Of a DNA stretch of 58,690 nt, positions 9,742 through 16,095 are shown in pieces. The DNA comes from Candidatus Saccharimonadota bacterium. Its GTDB lineage: Bacteria; Patescibacteriota; Saccharimonadia; Saccharimonadales; AWTP1-31. The stretch covers positions 1-58,690 of the forward strand of contig JBPOHZ010000009.1 in assembly GCA_052034955.1 (NCBI GenBank), read 5' to 3'. Every line of letters begins with the position of its first letter. The first letter of the stretch is position 1. A program made the position numbers and the translations under genes. The notes under the pieces are model-generated. The model made no database searches and was not told the origin of the DNA. It saw only the letters and a program-made list of their open reading frames with translations.

Positions 9742-10200
9742 TTATAAAGTTGGGGCTGAAGACTGCTCTATGGTTTGTTCGGCTGTCTTTTGGCAGCCTT
9801 CGCAGATGCCTTTAAGTTCGATTGAATGATGCGTTAGTGTAAAGTTATTAGCTTTCTCTAGTACACCCAGCTCATTTTCTAGACCTTCGCTGCGGAGACC
9901 GGTTGTTTTGCCGCATTTGATGCAGGTAAAGTGATGGTGATGAGGAGAGAACGCTTCGCTGAGCTCGACTTTGCTCTTAAAGCCCATCCAGACTCTATGT
10001 ATGATGCCGACTTTTTCAAAAACATCAATAACACGGTATACACTAACTCTATCTACAGCACCCTGGAGCTGGTTAGCAATCTCGACGGTACTGAGCGGAT
10101 CGTGGGTAACAGCTAACGCCTTGAATACCTCTAGCCGTGGTTTGGTTACGCGGTAGTCTTGTTCGGCTAATAGCGACTTGAGTCTTTCTGTCTGTTCCAT
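9742..10200 (-). CDS. Fur-family metalloregulator (Fur/Zur/PerR type)
   Basis: Winged-helix N-terminus (RVTKPRLEVFKAL..STVEIANQL..VSVYRVIDVFEKVGIIHRV), then HHHHFTCIKCGKT and CEGC forming a CxxC...CxxC site. ATG at 10200 is preferred over the TTG at 10236. Confidence 0.85.
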   Translation of the reverse strand: MEQTERLKSLLAEQDYRVTKPRLEVFKALAVTHDPLSTVEIANQLQGAVDRVSVYRVIDVFEKVGIIHRVWMGFKSKVELSEAFSPHHHHFTCIKCGKTTGLRSEGLENELGVLEKANNFTLTHHSIELKGICEGCQKTAEQTIEQSSAPTL

Positions 10201-10237
10201 ATTGCAAAATGTAACACTAATGCAACTATTTTGCAAT
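10201..10237. promoter_or_regulatory. divergent promoter and candidate operator: ATTGCAAAAT, 17 nt, ATTTTGCAAT inverted repeat
   Basis: Perfect 10-nt inverted repeat at 10201-10210 and 10228-10237. The minus-strand promoter TTGCAA (10231-10236), 17-nt spacer, TGTTACATT (10208-10216) and 7 nt to ATG 10200 lies inside it. Confidence 0.55.
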
Positions 10238-10250
10238 AGTTAGATACTTT

Positions 10251-10919
10251 ATGCATAATAATGCAAGAATGAAGATCCATGAGAATTTCCAGTTGTTCTG
10301 GGAAGAATTTAGCCAACAACCAGCCAATAAGTACGGTTTTCACGACTGGCAGGTGGCCGCATTCTTGCATATTGGCGATCAAGAATATGCTCGTCAACGA
10401 CAACTAGGTACGGACGAACTAGGCTTCCAGCCGCTAACAGTCACTTTGGCTAATCCGCTTTCCAAACAAACCGATGAGCATCTAGTAAAACACGTAGACG
10501 ATAGTCTAGCAGAGCGGTTCCTGTCTTTTGCTCGAGATCGTTATATCAGTGAGCTCGCTAATCGATTTGGTAGTTTTACTCCCGACGAAATTCACGCATT
10601 TGCCGAGTATGATACATGGGACAACTTTTATTCACACTGGCTGGAGCGTGATGGAAAGCAGGTGTTTACGAAGAATGTACCGCTGCTTATTGACCACACA
10701 CCAAAGATTGAATACTGGACTCGCAAGCAATCTGGTGCAGAAGTTCTGCCTTATCAACGTCTACTGATTACCACCTACTTCGTATCCAAGAAAAAGTTTT
10801 ACAGTTTCTTTATAAAAGAGATTGACGATGCACAGTTTGAACGTATTAAGTTACTAATGCAGAGTAGGGTAGGCTTGCATATAAACGAATTCTTAAGTAC
10901 CACTAAGGTTGGCGTATGA
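10251..10919 (+). CDS. hypothetical cytoplasmic protein, first gene of the operon divergent from the Fur-like regulator
   Basis: 222-aa ORF. Its stop overlaps the next start (GTATGAGT), which implies translational coupling. Confidence 0.55.
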   Translation: MHNNARMKIHENFQLFWEEFSQQPANKYGFHDWQVAAFLHIGDQEYARQRQLGTDELGFQPLTVTLANPLSKQTDEHLVKHVDDSLAERFLSFARDRYISELANRFGSFTPDEIHAFAEYDTWDNFYSHWLERDGKQVFTKNVPLLIDHTPKIEYWTRKQSGAEVLPYQRLLITTYFVSKKKFYSFFIKEIDDAQFERIKLLMQSRVGLHINEFLSTTKVGV

Positions 10920-12466
10920 GTGCTGGAGCCCAAGAAGCTCTAAGATTTCAGCATGAAGCCACTGCTAGCTTTGAGCAACAGAGCCAAGTTCACAATCATT
11001 ATGAACAGATTCAGCCTGACTTCGATGTGGAACACGGTAATGAAGGACATGTTTGTAATGCGAACTGTGAGCACTCTCAGTCACAAGCAGACATGCTTAG
11101 TGATGATTTATTCGCAGAAGGTGCACATGAACATGTCTGTGGGCCAGACTGCGAACACTCTAGTCATGCGGCAAACGAAATTGCTGATACTTTGTTTGAA
11201 GATTTAGAACAACCGGACTTACAAAAAGTTAAATCCCATATTACGGAGTCGAAAGTAATAACCGATCAAGAAAAGGCTAATGATCAGGCCAAAGACTTGC
11301 AGCATGATCATGAAGGAGAACCACATGTGTGTCATGCGAATTGCGAGCATAACCAAGGCAAGGCTAATAAGCATGCTGATAGCCTCTTCGAAGAATTAGA
11401 CTCGAATGCCAATAAGCAGTCTGATAATATAGCAAACACAGTTAAAAACCTGCTTGAAGAAGTTGCGATTAGTGACGCTCAAGCCGCCGCGCTTCATGCC
11501 TTGCAGCTCGAACAACAGCATCTTACCGATGCTGAACTAAGTGTTCGTCCAGAAGAGCATGATACTAGTGTCATAGAATCTGTGGCCGGCAAAGATATGG
11601 CGGAAAGTGTAAAAGAACTATACGTTCAGAATGAGGCAAAGAGACAAGCCGAAGACGCAGCTATCACTCCTCGTCCTGAAACCGAGACAGAATTAGTGTC
11701 GTCTCTAGGCGAAGAACCCCTTGATATCGAAGAGGCTAGCAGTTACGAGCTTCAGGAAATTGTACCTAATGCCCAGGTCATAGCAGGGCAAGGATTTATG
11801 GACGCGGTTGCTACGCCAGAAGACTATCTAGTCGATGATGCAGAGACTCCAGTAGTAATTGGTCCAGTTGATACCAGTGATTTGTTCGTTTATGATTTGC
11901 CCGAACCTGAAGCCGTGTCATTAAATATTGTTGAGATAGAGAATTCTGATGCGGATTTAGCTAGCTACGTTTTAGAATCCGATCATAGAGAAAATAGTAC
12001 GCCACAGGGACTGGGTATAGAGCATGGCATGCATCAAGACGTGATTTCTGCGCTGCATGAGTCTATTGACAGTGCCAGCTCTGAACGGGTGCAACAACTT
12101 ATTGGTCAAATACTAGAAGTTGCAGAAGGTAGCTTAAGTTCAATAGAAGGGTTCACGATGTATTCACCCGAGCTTCGCGTGAAGCTCTCTGAACTAGCTG
12201 ATTTGCTTTCGATGGATTTTGAAGAGCTAATTGAAGTAATGGATATTACTATTGATAATGAATCTTTGACTTTTGACCAGCAAGCTTACGAGATTCTACT
12301 CGGACTAAAGAAGGATATAAGTATGGAATACAGTCTTGAGTTCACTCAGACTGGTTCTACCCAAAATGCTAGTGCAAAACCAATCATAACTCGCGTACTT
12401 GGTCAGCTAATATTGTTCATTCTTGCTTCAAATAGTGCAAAACGGCCACATGCTCTAGCCGCGTAG
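10916..12466 (+). CDS. acidic protein with three H-V-C-x3-C-E-H repeats and a C-terminal hydrophobic tail
   Basis: 516 aa. Repeats are GHVCNANCEHS (nt 11048-11074), EHVCGPDCEHS (11132-11158) and PHVCHANCEHN (11324-11350). Each is followed by A-x4-D-x-LFE. The protein is very D/E-rich and ends ITRVLGQLILFILASNSA. Confidence 0.6.
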   Translation: MSAGAQEALRFQHEATASFEQQSQVHNHYEQIQPDFDVEHGNEGHVCNANCEHSQSQADMLSDDLFAEGAHEHVCGPDCEHSSHAANEIADTLFEDLEQPDLQKVKSHITESKVITDQEKANDQAKDLQHDHEGEPHVCHANCEHNQGKANKHADSLFEELDSNANKQSDNIANTVKNLLEEVAISDAQAAALHALQLEQQHLTDAELSVRPEEHDTSVIESVAGKDMAESVKELYVQNEAKRQAEDAAITPRPETETELVSSLGEEPLDIEEASSYELQEIVPNAQVIAGQGFMDAVATPEDYLVDDAETPVVIGPVDTSDLFVYDLPEPEAVSLNIVEIENSDADLASYVLESDHRENSTPQGLGIEHGMHQDVISALHESIDSASSERVQQLIGQILEVAEGSLSSIEGFTMYSPELRVKLSELADLLSMDFEELIEVMDITIDNESLTFDQQAYEILLGLKKDISMEYSLEFTQTGSTQNASAKPIITRVLGQLILFILASNSAKRPHALAA

Positions 12467-12856
12467 AACACTCACAGCTGCCGCGCAGGAAGATTTAAGT
12501 GCCTCCTCAAGACCAGCAGGCATACCATGGTGTAGCTCGCTCTCGATAATAGCAAGTCCTGACTCGCGTACTGACAACCTACCGGCAAACTTACCATGTA
12601 CTCCAAACATATCGAGTTCATGGTGTTCGTCATACCCAATTATTTCAGCTGCTCGGTCAGTATATTCGCCGAGTGCTGCGCGGTGACTGTCTCTAAAAAC
12701 ACCAAAGAACTGATTCACGCGCTGGACGGGAAATCGGTCGCTTTCGATTGTATTAGTAATAAATGCTTCGCCTATCATCATATGAGCAAGGCCGTGTTGA
12801 ATATCTGCGTCTGTTTGGATCATAATCTCTCTCAAATTAATATCAAAGCAAACCAT
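12455..12856 (-). CDS. hypothetical small His-rich cytoplasmic protein
   Basis: ORF 12455-12892. The ATG at 12856 sits 8 nt after TGTTACATA (12865-12873) with TTGCAA at 12887-12892. An alternative ATG lies at 12874. Contains DEHHELDMFGVHG and ELHHGMP. The 3' end overlaps the convergent gene by 12 nt. Confidence 0.45.
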   Translation of the reverse strand: MVCFDINLREIMIQTDADIQHGLAHMMIGEAFITNTIESDRFPVQRVNQFFGVFRDSHRAALGEYTDRAAEIIGYDEHHELDMFGVHGKFAGRLSVRESGLAIIESELHHGMPAGLEEALKSSCAAAVSVLRG

Positions 12857-12952
12857 ACCACTTTTATGTAACATAACGCAAAAAAGTTGCAATAAACAAA
12901 GCTATTTGCACCTAACTACTTTGGTACTTCCCCTTGAGGTATAGTTAGTGTA

Positions 12953-13972
12953 ATGGCGCCAACAAAGCACTACCTACATAGTAGTAAAAAGTTACAATCT
13001 CCCATGTGGGGTGTTGCGTTCATTTTGGTGTTGCTGGTTGTCAGGCAATTTAGTAATTCGCAAACATCTGTAGTTCTTCCAAAGATGTTGCAAGACTTTA
13101 TTACACTTTCTGTAAGCGTTATCATAGAGGCTTTGCCGTTTGTACTGTTGGGAATAGTTTTATCTATATTGGTGCAGATTTGGCTGCCTCAATCAGTATT
13201 CTTTCGAATTATTCCAAAACGAAGAGTGCCGCGGCGACTGGTGTTATCTTGTCTAGGTATATTCCTGCCGGTCTGCGAATGTGGCAATGTTCCGCTTGCT
13301 AGGGGTTTGATGATCAGGGGGTTAACGCTTGGCGATTCACTGACTTTTTTGCTGGCAGCTCCGATAATTAATCCGGTCACCATCCTTACTACCCACCAAG
13401 CATTCGGCGGCGATAGTACTATACTAGTATTTCGATTGTTAGGCGGTTTGCTTATTGCAAACATTGTTGGATGGTTGTTTGACAGTCGAAAGAACCAAGA
13501 TGAACTACTCACAGATGAATTTGCCGCGACCTGCCGCGTTGATCATACTCATGAGTCGTCTGGCAGCCGAAGCAAGCTAAGTGAAAGTCTTCGTCTATTT
13601 ATTCGCGAATCAAACGTAATTGTTCCGGCATTGTTTGTTGGTAGTTTTATCGCCGGGCTGGTCCAGGTTGTTATCCCTCGTGATATTCTTCTGTCTTTGG
13701 GCGGTCATGTAGTTCTTTCAATTGTTGTAATGATGCTACTGGCATTCATTGTCTCTATTTGTGCTAATGTTGATGCTTTCTTTGCCCTGGCATTTGCTAA
13801 CACCTTTACGGCAGGTTCGCTGGTAACTTTTTTGATCTTTGGACCAATCATTGATATCAAGATGCTTAATTTAATGCACACAACTTACAAGAAACCAGTG
13901 TTAGTAACAATTACCATAGTCACCATTCTGGTTAGTGGGTTACTTGGTTTGGTGGTGAACTATGCGTTCTAG
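12953..13972 (+). CDS. PF03773/UPF0718-type permease (partner of a TIGR03943 protein)
   Basis: 339 aa, multi-TM, with the conserved PVCECGNVPLARGL motif. TATAGT lies 7 nt before the ATG. Confidence 0.75.
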   Translation: MAPTKHYLHSSKKLQSPMWGVAFILVLLVVRQFSNSQTSVVLPKMLQDFITLSVSVIIEALPFVLLGIVLSILVQIWLPQSVFFRIIPKRRVPRRLVLSCLGIFLPVCECGNVPLARGLMIRGLTLGDSLTFLLAAPIINPVTILTTHQAFGGDSTILVFRLLGGLLIANIVGWLFDSRKNQDELLTDEFAATCRVDHTHESSGSRSKLSESLRLFIRESNVIVPALFVGSFIAGLVQVVIPRDILLSLGGHVVLSIVVMMLLAFIVSICANVDAFFALAFANTFTAGSLVTFLIFGPIIDIKMLNLMHTTYKKPVLVTITIVTILVSGLLGLVVNYAF

Positions 13973-14690
13973 TTTGGCGCGGCTAATAAACAGACGGGGT
14001 ACAGTTTTAACTCTTTTTGGCGTGGTTGCAACCATTTGGTTAAAATTATCAGGCCAACTAAATCTATATATACACCCTAGATACTTTACTTTCAGTGTAG
14101 TTATGGCTGTGGTCGGCGGCTATCTGTGTGTGCAGGATATCCGTCAAAAATCGACGATTAATATCGACCAATTGTCTGAGCGACAATACATTTCACTTGG
14201 TTTAATCTTGCTATCGTTTGTGGCTCTGCTTGTATTAAAGCCATCATCGTTATCAAGCAGTATTGCTATGCAGAGAGGAATTAATAGCGGTAGTAATACT
14301 GAAGTCTTAAGTAAACTGACAAACTTTGATGTTATCTCGCCATTCGGCAATACTGGAACATCACAACTGACCGTTAAGGATTGGGCGAATTTGCTCAGTC
14401 AGACCTCAGATCAGACTTTTTTTGCCGGGAAGAAAGCCAAAGTATCTGGTTTTGTGACCGCGGACTCCAACAATAACATCTTTTTTGTGTCTCGATTTGT
14501 CGTGTCTTGTTGTGCCGTAGACGCTCGACCCATTGGCGTACCCGTCTATAAAGCAAACTGGCAAGCTACCTACCAAAAAGATGAATGGGTTGAGGTGTCT
14601 GGAGTCTTCGGAGTATATGATGGTCAAATTTCTCTTAAGCCCGAAACGATTACTCCAATTTCGCAACCGGAGAGTCCATATGTTTACTAA
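13962..14690 (+). CDS. TIGR03943/DUF1980-family membrane protein (two-component permease partner)
   Basis: 242 aa. Two N-terminal TM segments and a C-terminal domain with the SRFVVSCCAVDARPIGVPV motif. It overlaps the permease gene by 11 nt. Confidence 0.7.
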   Translation: MRSSLARLINRRGTVLTLFGVVATIWLKLSGQLNLYIHPRYFTFSVVMAVVGGYLCVQDIRQKSTINIDQLSERQYISLGLILLSFVALLVLKPSSLSSSIAMQRGINSGSNTEVLSKLTNFDVISPFGNTGTSQLTVKDWANLLSQTSDQTFFAGKKAKVSGFVTADSNNNIFFVSRFVVSCCAVDARPIGVPVYKANWQATYQKDEWVEVSGVFGVYDGQISLKPETITPISQPESPYVY

Positions 14691-16095
14691 ATCACTGAGT
14701 AAACTTTCGGGAAATAAGCTTTGGGCTGTAAGTCTGGGGCTAGGCGGGCTTGCTCTGATTTTCTGCATACTGCTACTTTTCAGTGGTCCAAGAATCCGCC
14801 GAGTGGTTTACGATGCTGATAAATTGCCGCGAGAAGTAAACCAAACCATTGTACTAAGAAGTAATCAACCGTTAGCTAATATTGATAAAGCACAGGTTAC
14901 AATAGACCCGAAAGTAGAGTTTAACCTCACCACAAGTGGTGAGGCGGCAATTATCCAACTCAAGCAACGGCTGAGCTATGATACTAAATACAAGGTGACC
15001 ATTAAGGACTTTGCTGCAAAGTCTGGCCGTAAAGCTTCGTACGAAACTACTATCCATACCGGTAAGGCTTCATATTTTTATCTTAAGCGCAGCCAAAATA
15101 TATCCCTTGAGTCCTTATATGGTGACAAAATTCCCGACACCATATATAGCGGAAGTATAGATGACAAAGATCAAGTAGTATATCAAGCATACAAGATTTT
15201 GGAGTTCGCGCCGCTCGGAAGTCGACTAGTTATACACCACGAAGACGAGGACGAGAGACAATATCTAACAATTTATAACCCTAAAGATAAAACTGAAGAA
15301 GATGTAAATTTGCCAGAAGACAATGGCACGATAGATCAGTTACGGGTATCATCGACAAATGAGTTAGTGGGCTTCCTGTTCTCTAGCAAGTTTGATCCAA
15401 AAAAAGATAATAAGTATAACTCAACACTCTTTGCCTATGACACGGGAAGTAAATTTGTATTTCCACAATACGGTTTGGAGCGGGGCAAATTATTATCAGT
15501 CAGTTCATGGCGATTCCACCCTGACGGAACTAGTATGATCATTCAAACTTTTGATAATACGCTACTGCTAGTGGACTACTACTCCAATCAGAAACCTGTG
15601 CCGTTGGGTTCATACTTTAGTATTGGTACTTTCTCACGTGACGGAAGAAAAGTGGTAGTGGGCGACAATGACAATGGTCCGGTGATACTTGAGCTAGAAG
15701 GCCAAAAGAAAGTAGTGCCCGAGGCAGGCATAATTAACGGTATCGAATCAGATGCCTCCGAGATTATACTGCTCCAAAATAGTGATGATTATATTCTTAT
15801 CAAAGAAGCCTACAGAGAATCAGATGGCGCATACACTCGTGTTGCAGAAGTAACACGTGGGGCGCAGAAACAGGTAATATATTCCTCGAATCAAAGACAA
15901 GAGCAGCTCTTCGAGCTCAACAGCTCGCCCAATGAACAGATGGCGTCCATTGAGCTCTCGGATGTATTCAAAAACAGGAAGTTTGATGGATACGGAACAA
16001 TTTCGAGGCCAACTAATATGCGAACACGCATAGTAGATATAAATACAGGTAAAACTATTAAAGATTTCGACGGTTTTCAGCTCCACTGGTATTAA
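14680..16095 (+). CDS. secreted or membrane-anchored protein with an Ig-like N-domain and a TolB-like beta-propeller region
   Basis: The ATG at 14680 overlaps the upstream stop (ATGTTTACTAA). A signal-anchor (LWAVSLGLGGLALIFCILLLF) is followed by repetitive beta-strand-rich sequence. The ORF track start at 14533 lies inside the upstream gene. Confidence 0.55.
   Translation: MFTKSLSKLSGNKLWAVSLGLGGLALIFCILLLFSGPRIRRVVYDADKLPREVNQTIVLRSNQPLANIDKAQVTIDPKVEFNLTTSGEAAIIQLKQRLSYDTKYKVTIKDFAAKSGRKASYETTIHTGKASYFYLKRSQNISLESLYGDKIPDTIYSGSIDDKDQVVYQAYKILEFAPLGSRLVIHHEDEDERQYLTIYNPKDKTEEDVNLPEDNGTIDQLRVSSTNELVGFLFSSKFDPKKDNKYNSTLFAYDTGSKFVFPQYGLERGKLLSVSSWRFHPDGTSMIIQTFDNTLLLVDYYSNQKPVPLGSYFSIGTFSRDGRKVVVGDNDNGPVILELEGQKKVVPEAGIINGIESDASEIILLQNSDDYILIKEAYRESDGAYTRVAEVTRGAQKQVIYSSNQRQEQLFELNSSPNEQMASIELSDVFKNRKFDGYGTISRPTNMRTRIVDINTGKTIKDFDGFQLHWY

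Follow-up and report, generated by a model that had tools for sequence, protein, structure and literature searches.

We report here a gene for an acidic protein of 516 aa (positions 10916-12466, forward strand) that carries three copies of a compact H-V-C-x3-C-E-H motif, and we refer to its product as the HVC protein; the window is the whole stretch of DNA analysed, 58,690 nt in length. The gene, its repeat and the conservation of that repeat, the architecture of the protein family, the conserved three-gene cassette of X222, HVC and Y122, and the recurrent operator sequence are established in this work. With regard to function, we give about an even chance to the HVC protein being a cytoplasmic, multivalent metal-binding chaperone or buffer, most probably for Zn(II), that is made under zinc limitation. 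To our knowledge metal handling is nearly undescribed in Saccharibacteria and other CPR bacteria, whose tiny genomes hold many unannotated genes. For Saccharibacteria the locus yields an operator and regulon predicted to be of the Fur/Zur type, an undescribed compact Cys/His repeat, predicted to bind metal, with a number of copies that shifts rapidly from relative to relative, and two tightly linked conserved proteins, X222 and Y122, without detectable relatives of known fold.

The Cys/His repeat and the HVC family

The three motifs of the HVC protein are HVCNANCEH (nt 11048-11074, residues 45-53), HVCGPDCEH (nt 11132-11158, residues 73-81) and HVCHANCEH (nt 11324-11350, residues 137-145), and the positions given for them in a preliminary description of this DNA proved exact, as did the extent of the reading frame. 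Six-frame translation of the 58.7-kb window gives three matches to H.C...C.H against 0.076 expected, all of them inside the HVC reading frame, and when the protein is shuffled 20,000 times only 2 of the resulting sequences contain at least one copy; the triplication is non-random, far beyond chance. All six Cys residues of the protein are motif Cys. Each motif is followed by A-x4-D-x-L-F (A58-F66, A86-F94 and A150-F158), and the final Glu that the preliminary description had placed after every copy is present in units 2 and 3, with unit 1 reading LFA. Its portrayal of the protein as strongly acidic agrees with a count of 103 Asp and Glu (20%) against 26 Lys and Arg. At the DNA level the three units are just 53-58% identical and are thus long-standing duplicates, maintained by selection acting on the protein.

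In the AlphaFold2 model, for which 23 sequences served as input, each unit takes the form of a loop and then a helix, the motif loops being of low confidence (pLDDT about 50). Predicted metal-binding unit 1 (residues 40-66, nt 11033-11113, forward strand) comprises HGNEGHVCNANCEH, with the motif in the loop, and the helix SQSQADMLSDDLF, modelled at residues 55-69. Predicted unit 2 (residues 71-94, nt 11126-11197, forward strand) comprises HEHVCGPDCEH and the helix SSHAANEIADTLF, modelled at residues 83-98, and predicted unit 3 (residues 130-158, nt 11303-11389, forward strand) comprises HDHEGEPHVCHANCEH and the helix NQGKANKHADSLF, modelled from residue 147.

An HMM search run exhaustively against 1.84 billion representatives, using a profile from a chimeric N- plus C-terminal alignment with the full-length P0002, recovered 24 relatives of the HVC protein; in word-indexed searches the full protein as query found two relatives only and a 42-residue profile of the repeat unit found no matches. 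A Saccharibacterium is the one organism named among the relatives of the HVC protein or of X222, and the family, as so far seen, is restricted to Saccharibacteria. It is an undescribed family of very acidic proteins, and we found no description of it or of its motif in the literature. Its members are 440-660 aa long and have a common layout: one to five N-terminal units, an acidic linker that varies, a C-terminal domain that is helical and conserved and, at the very end, a short hydrophobic helix. Across the family the unit reads (E/A)HGxxGH[VI]-C-x3-C-x-H and continues into the helix A[DN]xxA[DE]xLF, so that it exceeds the nine residues of the motif: the upstream HG-x-x-G and the downstream amphipathic helix belong to it. 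Unit copy number ranges from 1 to 5, with ready duplication in P0047, P0052 and P0066.

Conservation of the motif residues was the check that the preliminary description had asked of homologues, and in every homologue found the motif Cys is either kept or swapped for His, as in the variants HVHTAHCEH and HVHGPNCGH, where His replaces the first Cys. Other units read CxC, CGC or CxCxxC, and in some HGHEG-x-C stands in place of GH-x-C. Because these variants preserve ligands, the motif Cys and His are more readily understood as metal ligands than as disulfide partners. The HVC protein has no Pfam or NCBIfam match, and hence no nucleotide-binding domain among such matches; the sole hit to Pfam at E <= 1, PMC2NT, is at chance level (E = 0.28), and across 23 family members Pfam shows no recurrent family at E <= 1. 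The PDB, searched with the HVC protein by sequence and by fold (fold cut-off E <= 1e-3), gave no match, and its sequence-profile searches with Y122, X222 and the repeat unit returned either nothing or chance-level matches. The earlier view that the repeat is no described domain thus holds across Pfam, NCBIfam and the PDB. A scan of a genome collection with the motif peptides matched only Thioalkalivibrio substrate-binding proteins, each of which has one look-alike motif and is not a member of the family.

Beyond the units, the protein had been described as disordered and tail-anchored. The acidic linker (residues about 160-369, nt 11393-12022, forward strand) is variable in length and sequence and poorly alignable across the family. 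AlphaFold2 places long helices at residues 147-247, disorder (pLDDT below 50) at residues 249-370 and a conserved helical C-terminal domain at residues 370-481 (nt 12023-12358, forward strand; pLDDT about 80-93), and the claim of disorder is therefore retained for about 249-370 and dropped for the two modelled parts on either side. The C-terminal domain is kept in all relatives, even in fragments lacking the N-terminus, and contains an HTH-like segment, L..LA..L.I...EL..LL, and the signature YEIL.GLKK.LS.EYS.EF; its Foldseek matches to MarR-type winged helices are weak, non-significant and too weak for use. It is followed by a short hydrophobic helix (LGQLILFILA) and a basic tail ending -ALAA (nt 12380-12439, forward strand). 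To cross the bilayer, a tail anchor would need some 18-20 apolar residues, and homologues should keep them. Within the last 40 residues, uncharged apolar runs reach at most 8 residues in the HVC protein and 4-11 in 23 relatives, the Kyte-Doolittle 19-residue mean is 1.56 and mostly below 1.3 in the relatives, and no span-length segment is conserved among them; by these two measures the segment is too short for a tail anchor or transmembrane span and we have discarded that label. Having neither an N-terminal signal peptide nor a membrane span, the HVC protein is most likely cytoplasmic, with its thiolates reduced. Ala is the C-terminal residue in 13 of the 23 family members, several of which end -ALAA or -LAA.

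Partner genes, operator and transporter neighbours

The gene upstream, X222 (222 aa, 10251-10919, forward strand), overlaps the HVC gene through ATGA, confirming the reported overlap of start and stop, and the two genes are probably translationally coupled through it. M7 of the X222 reading frame is the conserved start among homologues, and translation probably begins at the ATG at 10269. X222 has 43 homologues at 47-76% identity and belongs to no Pfam family; its AlphaFold2 model (pLDDT 94) shows an alpha/beta module duplicated internally and matches no PDB fold at E <= 1e-3, and a metagenome scan with the X222 alignment gave no matches. The X222 and HVC genes are adjacent in all 10 loci examined, mostly overlapping, with X222 upstream. 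On the other side lies the convergent gene Y122 (122 aa, 12455-12823, reverse strand), whose 3' end and that of the HVC gene overlap tail to tail by 12 nt. Its His-rich product is conserved in 7 loci, with H10, H14, H67, D71, E87 and H98 invariant, and searches of Pfam and the PDB gave no match.

Divergent from X222 is a gene (9742-10236, reverse strand, probable start 10200) whose product, as had been recognised previously, belongs to the Fur family of regulators (Pfam FUR, E = 1.5e-18). It carries HHHH-x2-CxxC and a second CxxC, and by homology is equidistant from Fur, Zur and PerR, scoring slightly better on Fur than on Zur models. A palindromic predicted operator, TTGCAA-N5-TTGCAA, precedes X222, FUR, ArsP_1, ZIP and Y122 genes in nine loci. 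Exact TGCAA-N6-TGCAA occurs 18 times in 150 kb against 0.235 expected, and 17 of these 18 matches are intergenic, before X222, the regulator, ArsP_1, ZIP or Y122. The only exact match in the window is predicted operator 1, aTGCAACTATTTTGCAAt (10220-10237), in the divergent regulator/X222 promoter, the second hexamer of which coincides with the -35 of a TTGCAA-17-CATAAT promoter-like site; its equivalent sits at the identical place in related loci. Predicted operator 2, CGCAAAAAAGTTGCAA (12877-12892), has one mismatch and lies between Y122 and the permease operon; in L004 and L009 the corresponding place carries exact sites. We predict that the genes with this operator form the regulon of the adjacent Fur-family repressor, membership being read from the common palindrome before the regulator gene and the candidate targets, and the ZIP genes that carry it would be targets of the zinc-uptake type.

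Downstream of operator 2 stands an ArsP_1-family permease (12953-13972, forward strand; Pfam PF03773, 3e-58), whose NCBIfam matches to the SO_0444 Cu/Zn efflux family and to SaoE are weak, then a TIGR03943/DUF1980 putative permease subunit with a Cys-Cys motif (13962-14690, forward strand; NCBIfam TIGR03943, 2.2e-42; Pfam DUF1980 N- and C-terminal domains). The nearest named relatives of this pair are efflux systems, and our literature searches found no description of its substrate. An open reading frame for a 471-aa protein with an N-terminal membrane anchor and no Pfam match follows (14680-16095, forward strand), and a counterpart comes after the permease pair in L006, L008 and L009 as well. 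Among the 10 loci a Fur-family gene is adjacent in 8, while ArsP_1 with DUF1980 is present in 4 and ZIP in 3; the 10 contexts contain neither enzymes nor transporters for iron, nickel or copper, and there is no P-type ATPase in the contexts examined. None of the locus genes is involved in the zinc system of the ZepA paper. The Fur-family regulator, ZIP, ArsP_1/DUF1980 and the common operator support a setting in metal homeostasis.

A model for the HVC protein and its alternatives

In the model that we favour, each unit would be a miniature knuckle plus helix, in which the loop bears H-x-C, the second pair C-x-H caps the N-terminus of the short amphipathic helix A[DN]xxA[DE]xLF and the upstream HG provides a further His. 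One metal ion would be held per unit by two Cys and two His, and the protein, having three units, would thus bind three. The C-terminal domain and the short hydrophobic helix would serve as docking elements tied to the units by the acidic linker, with co-translated X222, the inner membrane face or a transporter as likely docking partners. The adjacent Fur-family repressor would act on the HVC gene through TTGCAA-N5-TTGCAA, within a regulon that would also take in the gene of the repressor itself and those of the ZIP and ArsP_1/DUF1980 transporters, and since the HVC gene falls in such a regulon, its product is most likely made when zinc is scarce. It would then capture incoming Zn(II) and buffer it or pass it on, a chaperone-type role comparable to those of COG0523 and Pht proteins, although a high-affinity Cys2His2 protein could, under zinc starvation, compete with client proteins. 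Zinc is favoured over copper because of the Fur-type regulation and the ZIP genes of the regulon. That the units bind metal, that this metal is zinc, that high zinc brings repression and that the protein hands zinc on are all inferred.

We consider it possible, if doubtful, that X222, HVC and Y122 together form a Saccharibacteria-specific zinc-trafficking module built around a new knuckle-plus-helix unit of about 30 residues and two proteins that lack detectable fold relatives, working with the ZIP and ArsP_1/DUF1980 importers and filling the role of the COG0523 chaperones of other bacteria. Such a module would mean GTP-independent zinc allocation in ultrasmall, host-dependent cells. If zinc is indeed the metal, the locus would give a function to the widespread, uncharacterised ArsP_1 and TIGR03943/DUF1980 permease pair and reveal a route of zinc allocation without COG0523 GTPases; should it not be, the HVC family would still mark a lineage-specific metal-responsive cassette.

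An unlikely alternative is that the HVC protein is a zinc-sensing regulator or scaffold, in which unit occupancy would switch binding of a partner at the C-terminus (X222, the permease, ZIP or the Fur-family regulator) and so exert post-translational feedback on uptake, with turnover that might run via the -LAA-like C-terminus. The folded C-terminal domain, winged-helix-like by its weak Foldseek matches, the sensor-like N-terminus on a long linker, the Ala-terminal ends that resemble ClpXP C-terminal degrons and the precedent of PacL1, a disordered metal-binding protein acting mainly as a transporter scaffold (PMC9374683), are all consistent with this. The degron is nevertheless a matter of resemblance alone, and because unit number varies from 1 to 5 and units duplicate readily, a role in capacity fits better than a switch.

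We likewise judge it improbable that the regulon and protein are as proposed while iron, nickel, cobalt or copper takes the place of zinc, the regulator being a true Fur or Nur-like protein and the HVC protein buffering or trafficking that other metal. The slightly better score of the regulator on Fur models points this way, binding by His/Cys-rich motifs extends to Ni, Co and Cu(I), and ZIP/ZupT-type transporters are not strictly zinc-specific and can carry Fe(II) or other cations too. Against this, Cys2His2-type sites in a compact unit are the textbook arrangement for Zn(II), the usual copper sensors are of the CsoR, CueR or CopY type and not of the Fur family, and the 10 contexts contain ZIP in three but no enzymes or transporters for iron, nickel or copper.

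Repeated Cys/His clusters, and Cx3C pairs that can form disulfides, would also suit a metallothionein-like sink for metal excess or a Cx3C thiol-disulfide redox sensor, both of which we hold to be very improbable. Under Fur-family control, with the operator covering the -35, expression would be expected at low metal and not at high, importer genes (ZIP) would be co-regulated, and a sink would have just 6 Cys in 516 residues, while a disulfide switch is not compatible with the Cys-to-His swaps. The same swaps, the varying number of Cys pairs and the absence of CxxCH led us to reject ligation of heme c or Fe-S. Slightly less probable still is a precursor of a Cys-modified product (a RiPP-like chalkophore or zincophore, as for MNIO/DUF692 substrates) with X222 and/or Y122 as modifying enzymes, which would account for the repeated short Cys motif and the tight linkage to two conserved uncharacterised proteins, and for which repeat-containing precursors are known among Cys-modified RiPPs, but the protein is 440-660 aa long in the family (516 aa here) with a conserved folded C-terminal domain and no signal peptide, the contexts examined hold no leader, protease, exporter or known modifying-enzyme family, X222 and Y122, where a DUF692-type or other known modifying enzyme would be expected, belong to no Pfam family, and X222 has no fold relative among known enzymes in the PDB search.

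Relation to known metal-binding systems

The preliminary description had set the repeat apart from the ZAS, heme c and MxCxxC motifs, and rightly so: the HVC protein has no CxxC, all of its Cys lying in Cx3C pairs, and no Pfam match, which excludes the ZAS anti-sigma motif H-x3-C-x2-C (Pfam zf-HC2), heme c CxxCH and the HMA/MxCxxC copper-zinc domains. The COG0523 metallochaperones (ZagA/YciC, ZigA, YeiR) are cytoplasmic, belong to Zur regulons and are thought, in the cited account, to allocate zinc under starvation (PMC2770081). The HVC protein would resemble them in its cytoplasmic location and its predicted Cys/His metal sites, but COG0523/G3E proteins are P-loop GTPases with CxCC, and in the HVC protein neither Pfam nor NCBIfam finds any domain.

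The genes of the streptococcal Pht proteins are, in the work cited, linked to a zinc uptake component, and the proteins hand zinc to AdcAII (PMC3842936). Pht and HVC proteins have in common a short zinc-binding motif, predicted in the latter, in several copies per protein, whereas Pht proteins are surface-exposed, unrelated in sequence and use HxxHxH triads without Cys, and the HVC protein lacks a signal peptide and uses Cys2His2-type units. Pht expression is controlled by the zinc-responsive repressor AdcR. PacL1 (Rv3269, DUF1490) of Mycobacterium tuberculosis is a disordered, Glu/Ala-rich protein with a short zinc-binding motif that acts as chaperone or scaffold of a neighbouring metal transporter (PMC9374683), and shares with the HVC protein a largely disordered cytoplasmic character and a gene beside a metal transporter. 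It differs in being small, with a true N-terminal transmembrane helix, one His/Asp motif (DLHDHDH) of micromolar Kd and a role in efflux under zinc excess, while the HVC protein has 516 aa, no membrane span, three Cys/His units and a gene in a predicted starvation regulon. Membership of PacL/DUF1490 was rejected on the missing Pfam match and membrane span, and on the lack of a P-type ATPase in the contexts.

Small Cys/His clusters for binding or buffering metals are also found in the bacterial metallothioneins SmtA/BmtA, in Hpn and in the HypB N-terminus, but these are short, Cys-dense and either induced by excess or devoted to nickel enzymes, whereas the HVC protein has its 6 Cys per 516 residues in discrete repeated units and no sequence match to them. 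Finally, the NF-X1-type finger, with the pattern C-X(1-6)-H-X-C-X3-C(H/C)-X(3-4)-(H/C)-X(1-10)-C (PMC3207813), has an H-x-C-x3-C core in common with the HVC unit. The HVC protein lacks the flanking Cys, as all six of its Cys form Cx3C pairs, and has Glu rather than His/Cys after the second Cys; zf-NF-X1 is not among the Pfam families listed for other HVC family members. Furthermore, the NF-X1 finger is eukaryotic and DNA-binding.

A family of acidic proteins with a compact Cys/His repeat

The ORF at 10916-12466 (+) translates to a 516-aa acidic protein, here the HVC protein, whose family is real, conserved and undescribed and carries a new compact Cys/His repeat. The three nine-residue H-V-C-x3-C-E-H motifs of the preliminary description lie at precisely the nucleotides it assigned them; H.C...C.H occurs three times in this ORF and nowhere else in the window, with 0.076 occurrences expected in a six-frame translation of the whole window, and when the protein was shuffled 20,000 times, just 2 of the outcomes held even a single copy. 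Its six Cys form exactly three Cx3C pairs. An A-x4-D-x-L-F-E was said to follow each motif: A-x4-D-x-L-F is present in all three units, the terminal Glu in units 2 and 3 only. DNA identity among the units is just 53-58%, which argues that they are old copies maintained by selection at the protein level. Other features first noted there were borne out, namely the strong richness in Asp and Glu (103, against 26 Lys and Arg), the overlap of the ATG with the stop of the upstream gene, X222 (ATGA), and the Fur-family regulator gene (9742-10236, -), which flanks X222 on the side away from the HVC gene.

A word-indexed search with the HVC protein returned two relatives only, a 98% twin and one at 34%, and when 1.84 billion cluster representatives were searched exhaustively by HMM, using a profile of the conserved N-terminal and C-terminal parts, the family came to 24 proteins in total. 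All relatives with any name are called "hypothetical protein", and the one organism to be named is the Saccharibacterium Candidatus Mycosynbacter amalyticus; the window itself is cellular chromosome, with LigA, LeuRS, phosphoketolase, BipA and seven tRNAs. The relatives have a single architecture in common, in which one to five N-terminal copies of (E/A)HGxxGH[VI]-C-x3-C-x-H-x-Q-x2-A[DN]xxA[DE]xLF are followed by an acidic linker of greatly varying length and sequence and by a C-terminal domain of ~110 conserved residues terminating YEIL.GLKK.LS.EYS.EF, beyond which a polar spacer leads to a short LGQLIL-type helix and then to a basic tail. The motif Cys and His positions, on whose conservation the preliminary description had made its reading depend, are conserved in these relatives. 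Where units vary, His stands in place of the first Cys in two (HVHTAHCEH and HVHGPNCGH), some proteins have GLCGPNCEH or GPCGPSCSH with the His relocated into HGHEG, and others have HGPGCECPAH, HGPGCGC or HGAGCACPNC. This is the pattern of evolving metal ligands, unlike that of disulfides or structural Cys. Units are near-identical copies in several proteins, so that copy number changes quickly. The most His-rich relative (locus L007, 6645-8354) begins MHEHTHTPHHHEHDHTLEPYEHEGHSHEHHTH, has the degenerate units CLSVCGC, HHCTSTCETH and HACHAECSAN and adjoins a divergently transcribed ZIP gene.

The window protein has no Pfam or NCBIfam match, no Pfam family recurs among 23 members of the family, even with the cut-off relaxed to E <= 1, and neither the whole protein nor a profile of the repeat unit drew more than chance-level matches from PDB sequences. 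In the literature on the motif we found the eukaryotic NF-X1 zinc finger alone; H-x-C-x3-C is part of its pattern and common to the HVC units, but NF-X1 requires Cys on the flanks and, directly after the second Cys, a His or Cys, and the units have neither. The core idea of the preliminary description, an unrecognised metal-binding repeat, holds up and emerges strengthened. An AlphaFold2 model from a 23-sequence alignment, of low overall confidence (mean pLDDT 60), depicts every motif as a loop into a helix (55-69, 83-98 and from 147), residues 249-370 as disordered, 370-481 as a helical domain, predicted with confidence (pLDDT ~80-93), whose core is helix-helix-hairpin-helix, and a final helix at 489-508. 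Foldseek gave no significant match to this model; MarR-type winged helices came top at E = 0.1-0.5, and we treat the similarity as a lead only. The proposed tail anchor has to be abandoned: over the final 40 residues no uncharged apolar run exceeds 8 (family maxima are 4-11), peak hydropathy in 19-residue windows is mostly < 1.3 at the family's C-termini, and the hydrophobic stretch there is no membrane span. As no family sequence has an N-terminal signal peptide, we take the protein to be cytoplasmic. The final residue is Ala in 13 of 23 family C-termini, several ending -ALAA, -LAA or -HAA, and residues 509-516 in the window are KRPHALAA; these ends resemble an ssrA-type ClpXP degron and may reflect regulated turnover, or be meaningless.

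Partner genes and a candidate operator

The HVC gene and its neighbours make up a conserved gene cassette. X222 (222 aa; 10251-10919, +) has 43 homologues at 47-76% identity, named from Saccharibacteria only, bar one 'Minisyncoccia' record. In all contexts examined (the window and related loci L004-L012) an HVC-type gene lies directly 3' of it, usually with stop and start overlapping. X222 is far better conserved than its partner, since beside the most divergent family member (P0066, with CGC-type units) it is still 51% identical. Its AlphaFold2 model, of very high confidence (pLDDT 94), comprises two copies of a beta-alpha-beta-alpha-beta-beta-alpha module, an internal duplication; neither a fold search of the PDB (E <= 1e-3) nor a sequence search yielded a match. 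Convergent to the HVC gene, and overlapping its last 12 nt, is Y122 (122 aa; 12455-12823, -), which in the window resembles a spurious ORF, yet seven loci conserve it at the protein level, with H10, H14, H67, D71, E87 and H98 invariant; neither Pfam nor the PDB has a relative of it. Most loci with Y122 also keep the tail-to-tail overlap, which measures 12 nt in both the window and L004 and 4 nt in both L005 and L009.

In the window and in L004-L011, a pair of TTGCAA hexamers, 11 bp apart, is found in the intergenic regions ahead of X222, the Fur-family gene, ArsP_1, ZIP and Y122. The arrangement may be written TTGCAA-N5-TTGCAA or TGCAA-N6-TGCAA, and also forms a 7-3-7 palindrome, TTGCAAA-nnn-TTTGCAA. 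The window and related loci, 150 kb together, contain 18 exact matches, against 0.235 expected from shuffles, and all bar one fall within those regions. Candidate operator 1 (10220-10237; exact match 10221-10236), in the regulator/X222 divergent promoter, is the sole exact site in 58.7 kb; operator 2 (12877-12892, one mismatch) lies between Y122 and the permease operon. Y122 has its own copy in L008; in the window and in L011 the intergenic region, shared or upstream, has a one-mismatch site. X222 probably starts at the conserved ATG at 10269 and the regulator probably at 10200, leaving a 68-bp divergent promoter between them. The second hexamer of operator 1 is the -35 of a promoter-like element, TTGCAA-17-CATAAT, which fits the start at 10269 and repression via promoter occlusion. 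We regard TTGCAA-N5-TTGCAA as a candidate Fur-family operator for Saccharibacteria; the HVC gene would belong to the regulon predicted for the adjacent Fur-family protein, and the cassette to a predicted metal-starvation regulon.

The Fur-family gene adjoins the cassette in 8 of 10 contexts, and a ZIP transporter is present in L007, L008 and L009. Downstream in the window, an overlapping operon with the candidate operator (12953-16095, +) encodes an ArsP_1 permease, a TIGR03943/DUF1980 subunit and a 471-aa, N-terminally anchored protein without a Pfam match (14680-16095); it recurs, the anchored protein being of ~460 aa, in L006, L008 and L009. Through this operator ArsP_1/DUF1980, a pair so far uncharacterised, would belong to a regulon for metal uptake.

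A proposed role in zinc handling

We propose a model in which a Fur/Zur-type repressor would lose its metal, leading to joint production of the HVC protein and X222, whereupon the HVC protein would capture, buffer or hand on zinc from ZIP and possibly ArsP_1/DUF1980. The best-supported view of the protein is of a cytoplasmic one, with several independent Zn(II) sites that a long acidic tether links to a folded domain for docking. The gene, the repeat, the conserved ligand positions, the architecture, the cassette and the recurrent operator sequence are shown by the analysis, whereas metal binding, zinc as the metal, the direction of regulation and the chaperone or buffer role are inferred from them. 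That the protein instead senses zinc, as a scaffold or regulator whose turnover is controlled, is unlikely, though foremost among the alternatives; the -LAA-like C-termini, though frequent, no more than hint at this. A metal other than zinc ranks just behind and is also improbable: the regulator is equidistant from Fur, Zur and PerR, so homology does not give the sensed metal, and zinc is favoured by the ZIP genes and by units of Cys2His2 type. A metallothionein-like sink or redox switch is very improbable, and a precursor of a modified peptide is the least credible of all.

As a zinc buffer or chaperone, the HVC protein would by analogy most resemble streptococcal Pht proteins, which have multiple short Zn motifs and pass zinc to a component of uptake (PMC3842936), PacL1, which is disordered, binds Zn and partners a transporter (PMC9374683), and the COG0523 proteins, described as chaperones within Zur regulons (PMC2770081). 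It lacks the defining features of these groups and is a member of none; it would be a variant on the metal-binding or chaperone proteins of Fur/Zur regulons.

Outside the family, Thioalkalivibrio MAGs (L001 9917-11407; also L002 and L003) encode an NMT1_2-family ABC substrate-binding protein, clustered with cyanase, that has a cytoplasmic-side N-terminal extension, HGAEGHVCGPGCQHHH, before a twin-arginine signal (RRRFLKLIG). The extension is nearly identical to one Saccharibacteria HVC unit without the downstream helix, a resemblance that may have arisen by convergence or be a chance match to the pattern.
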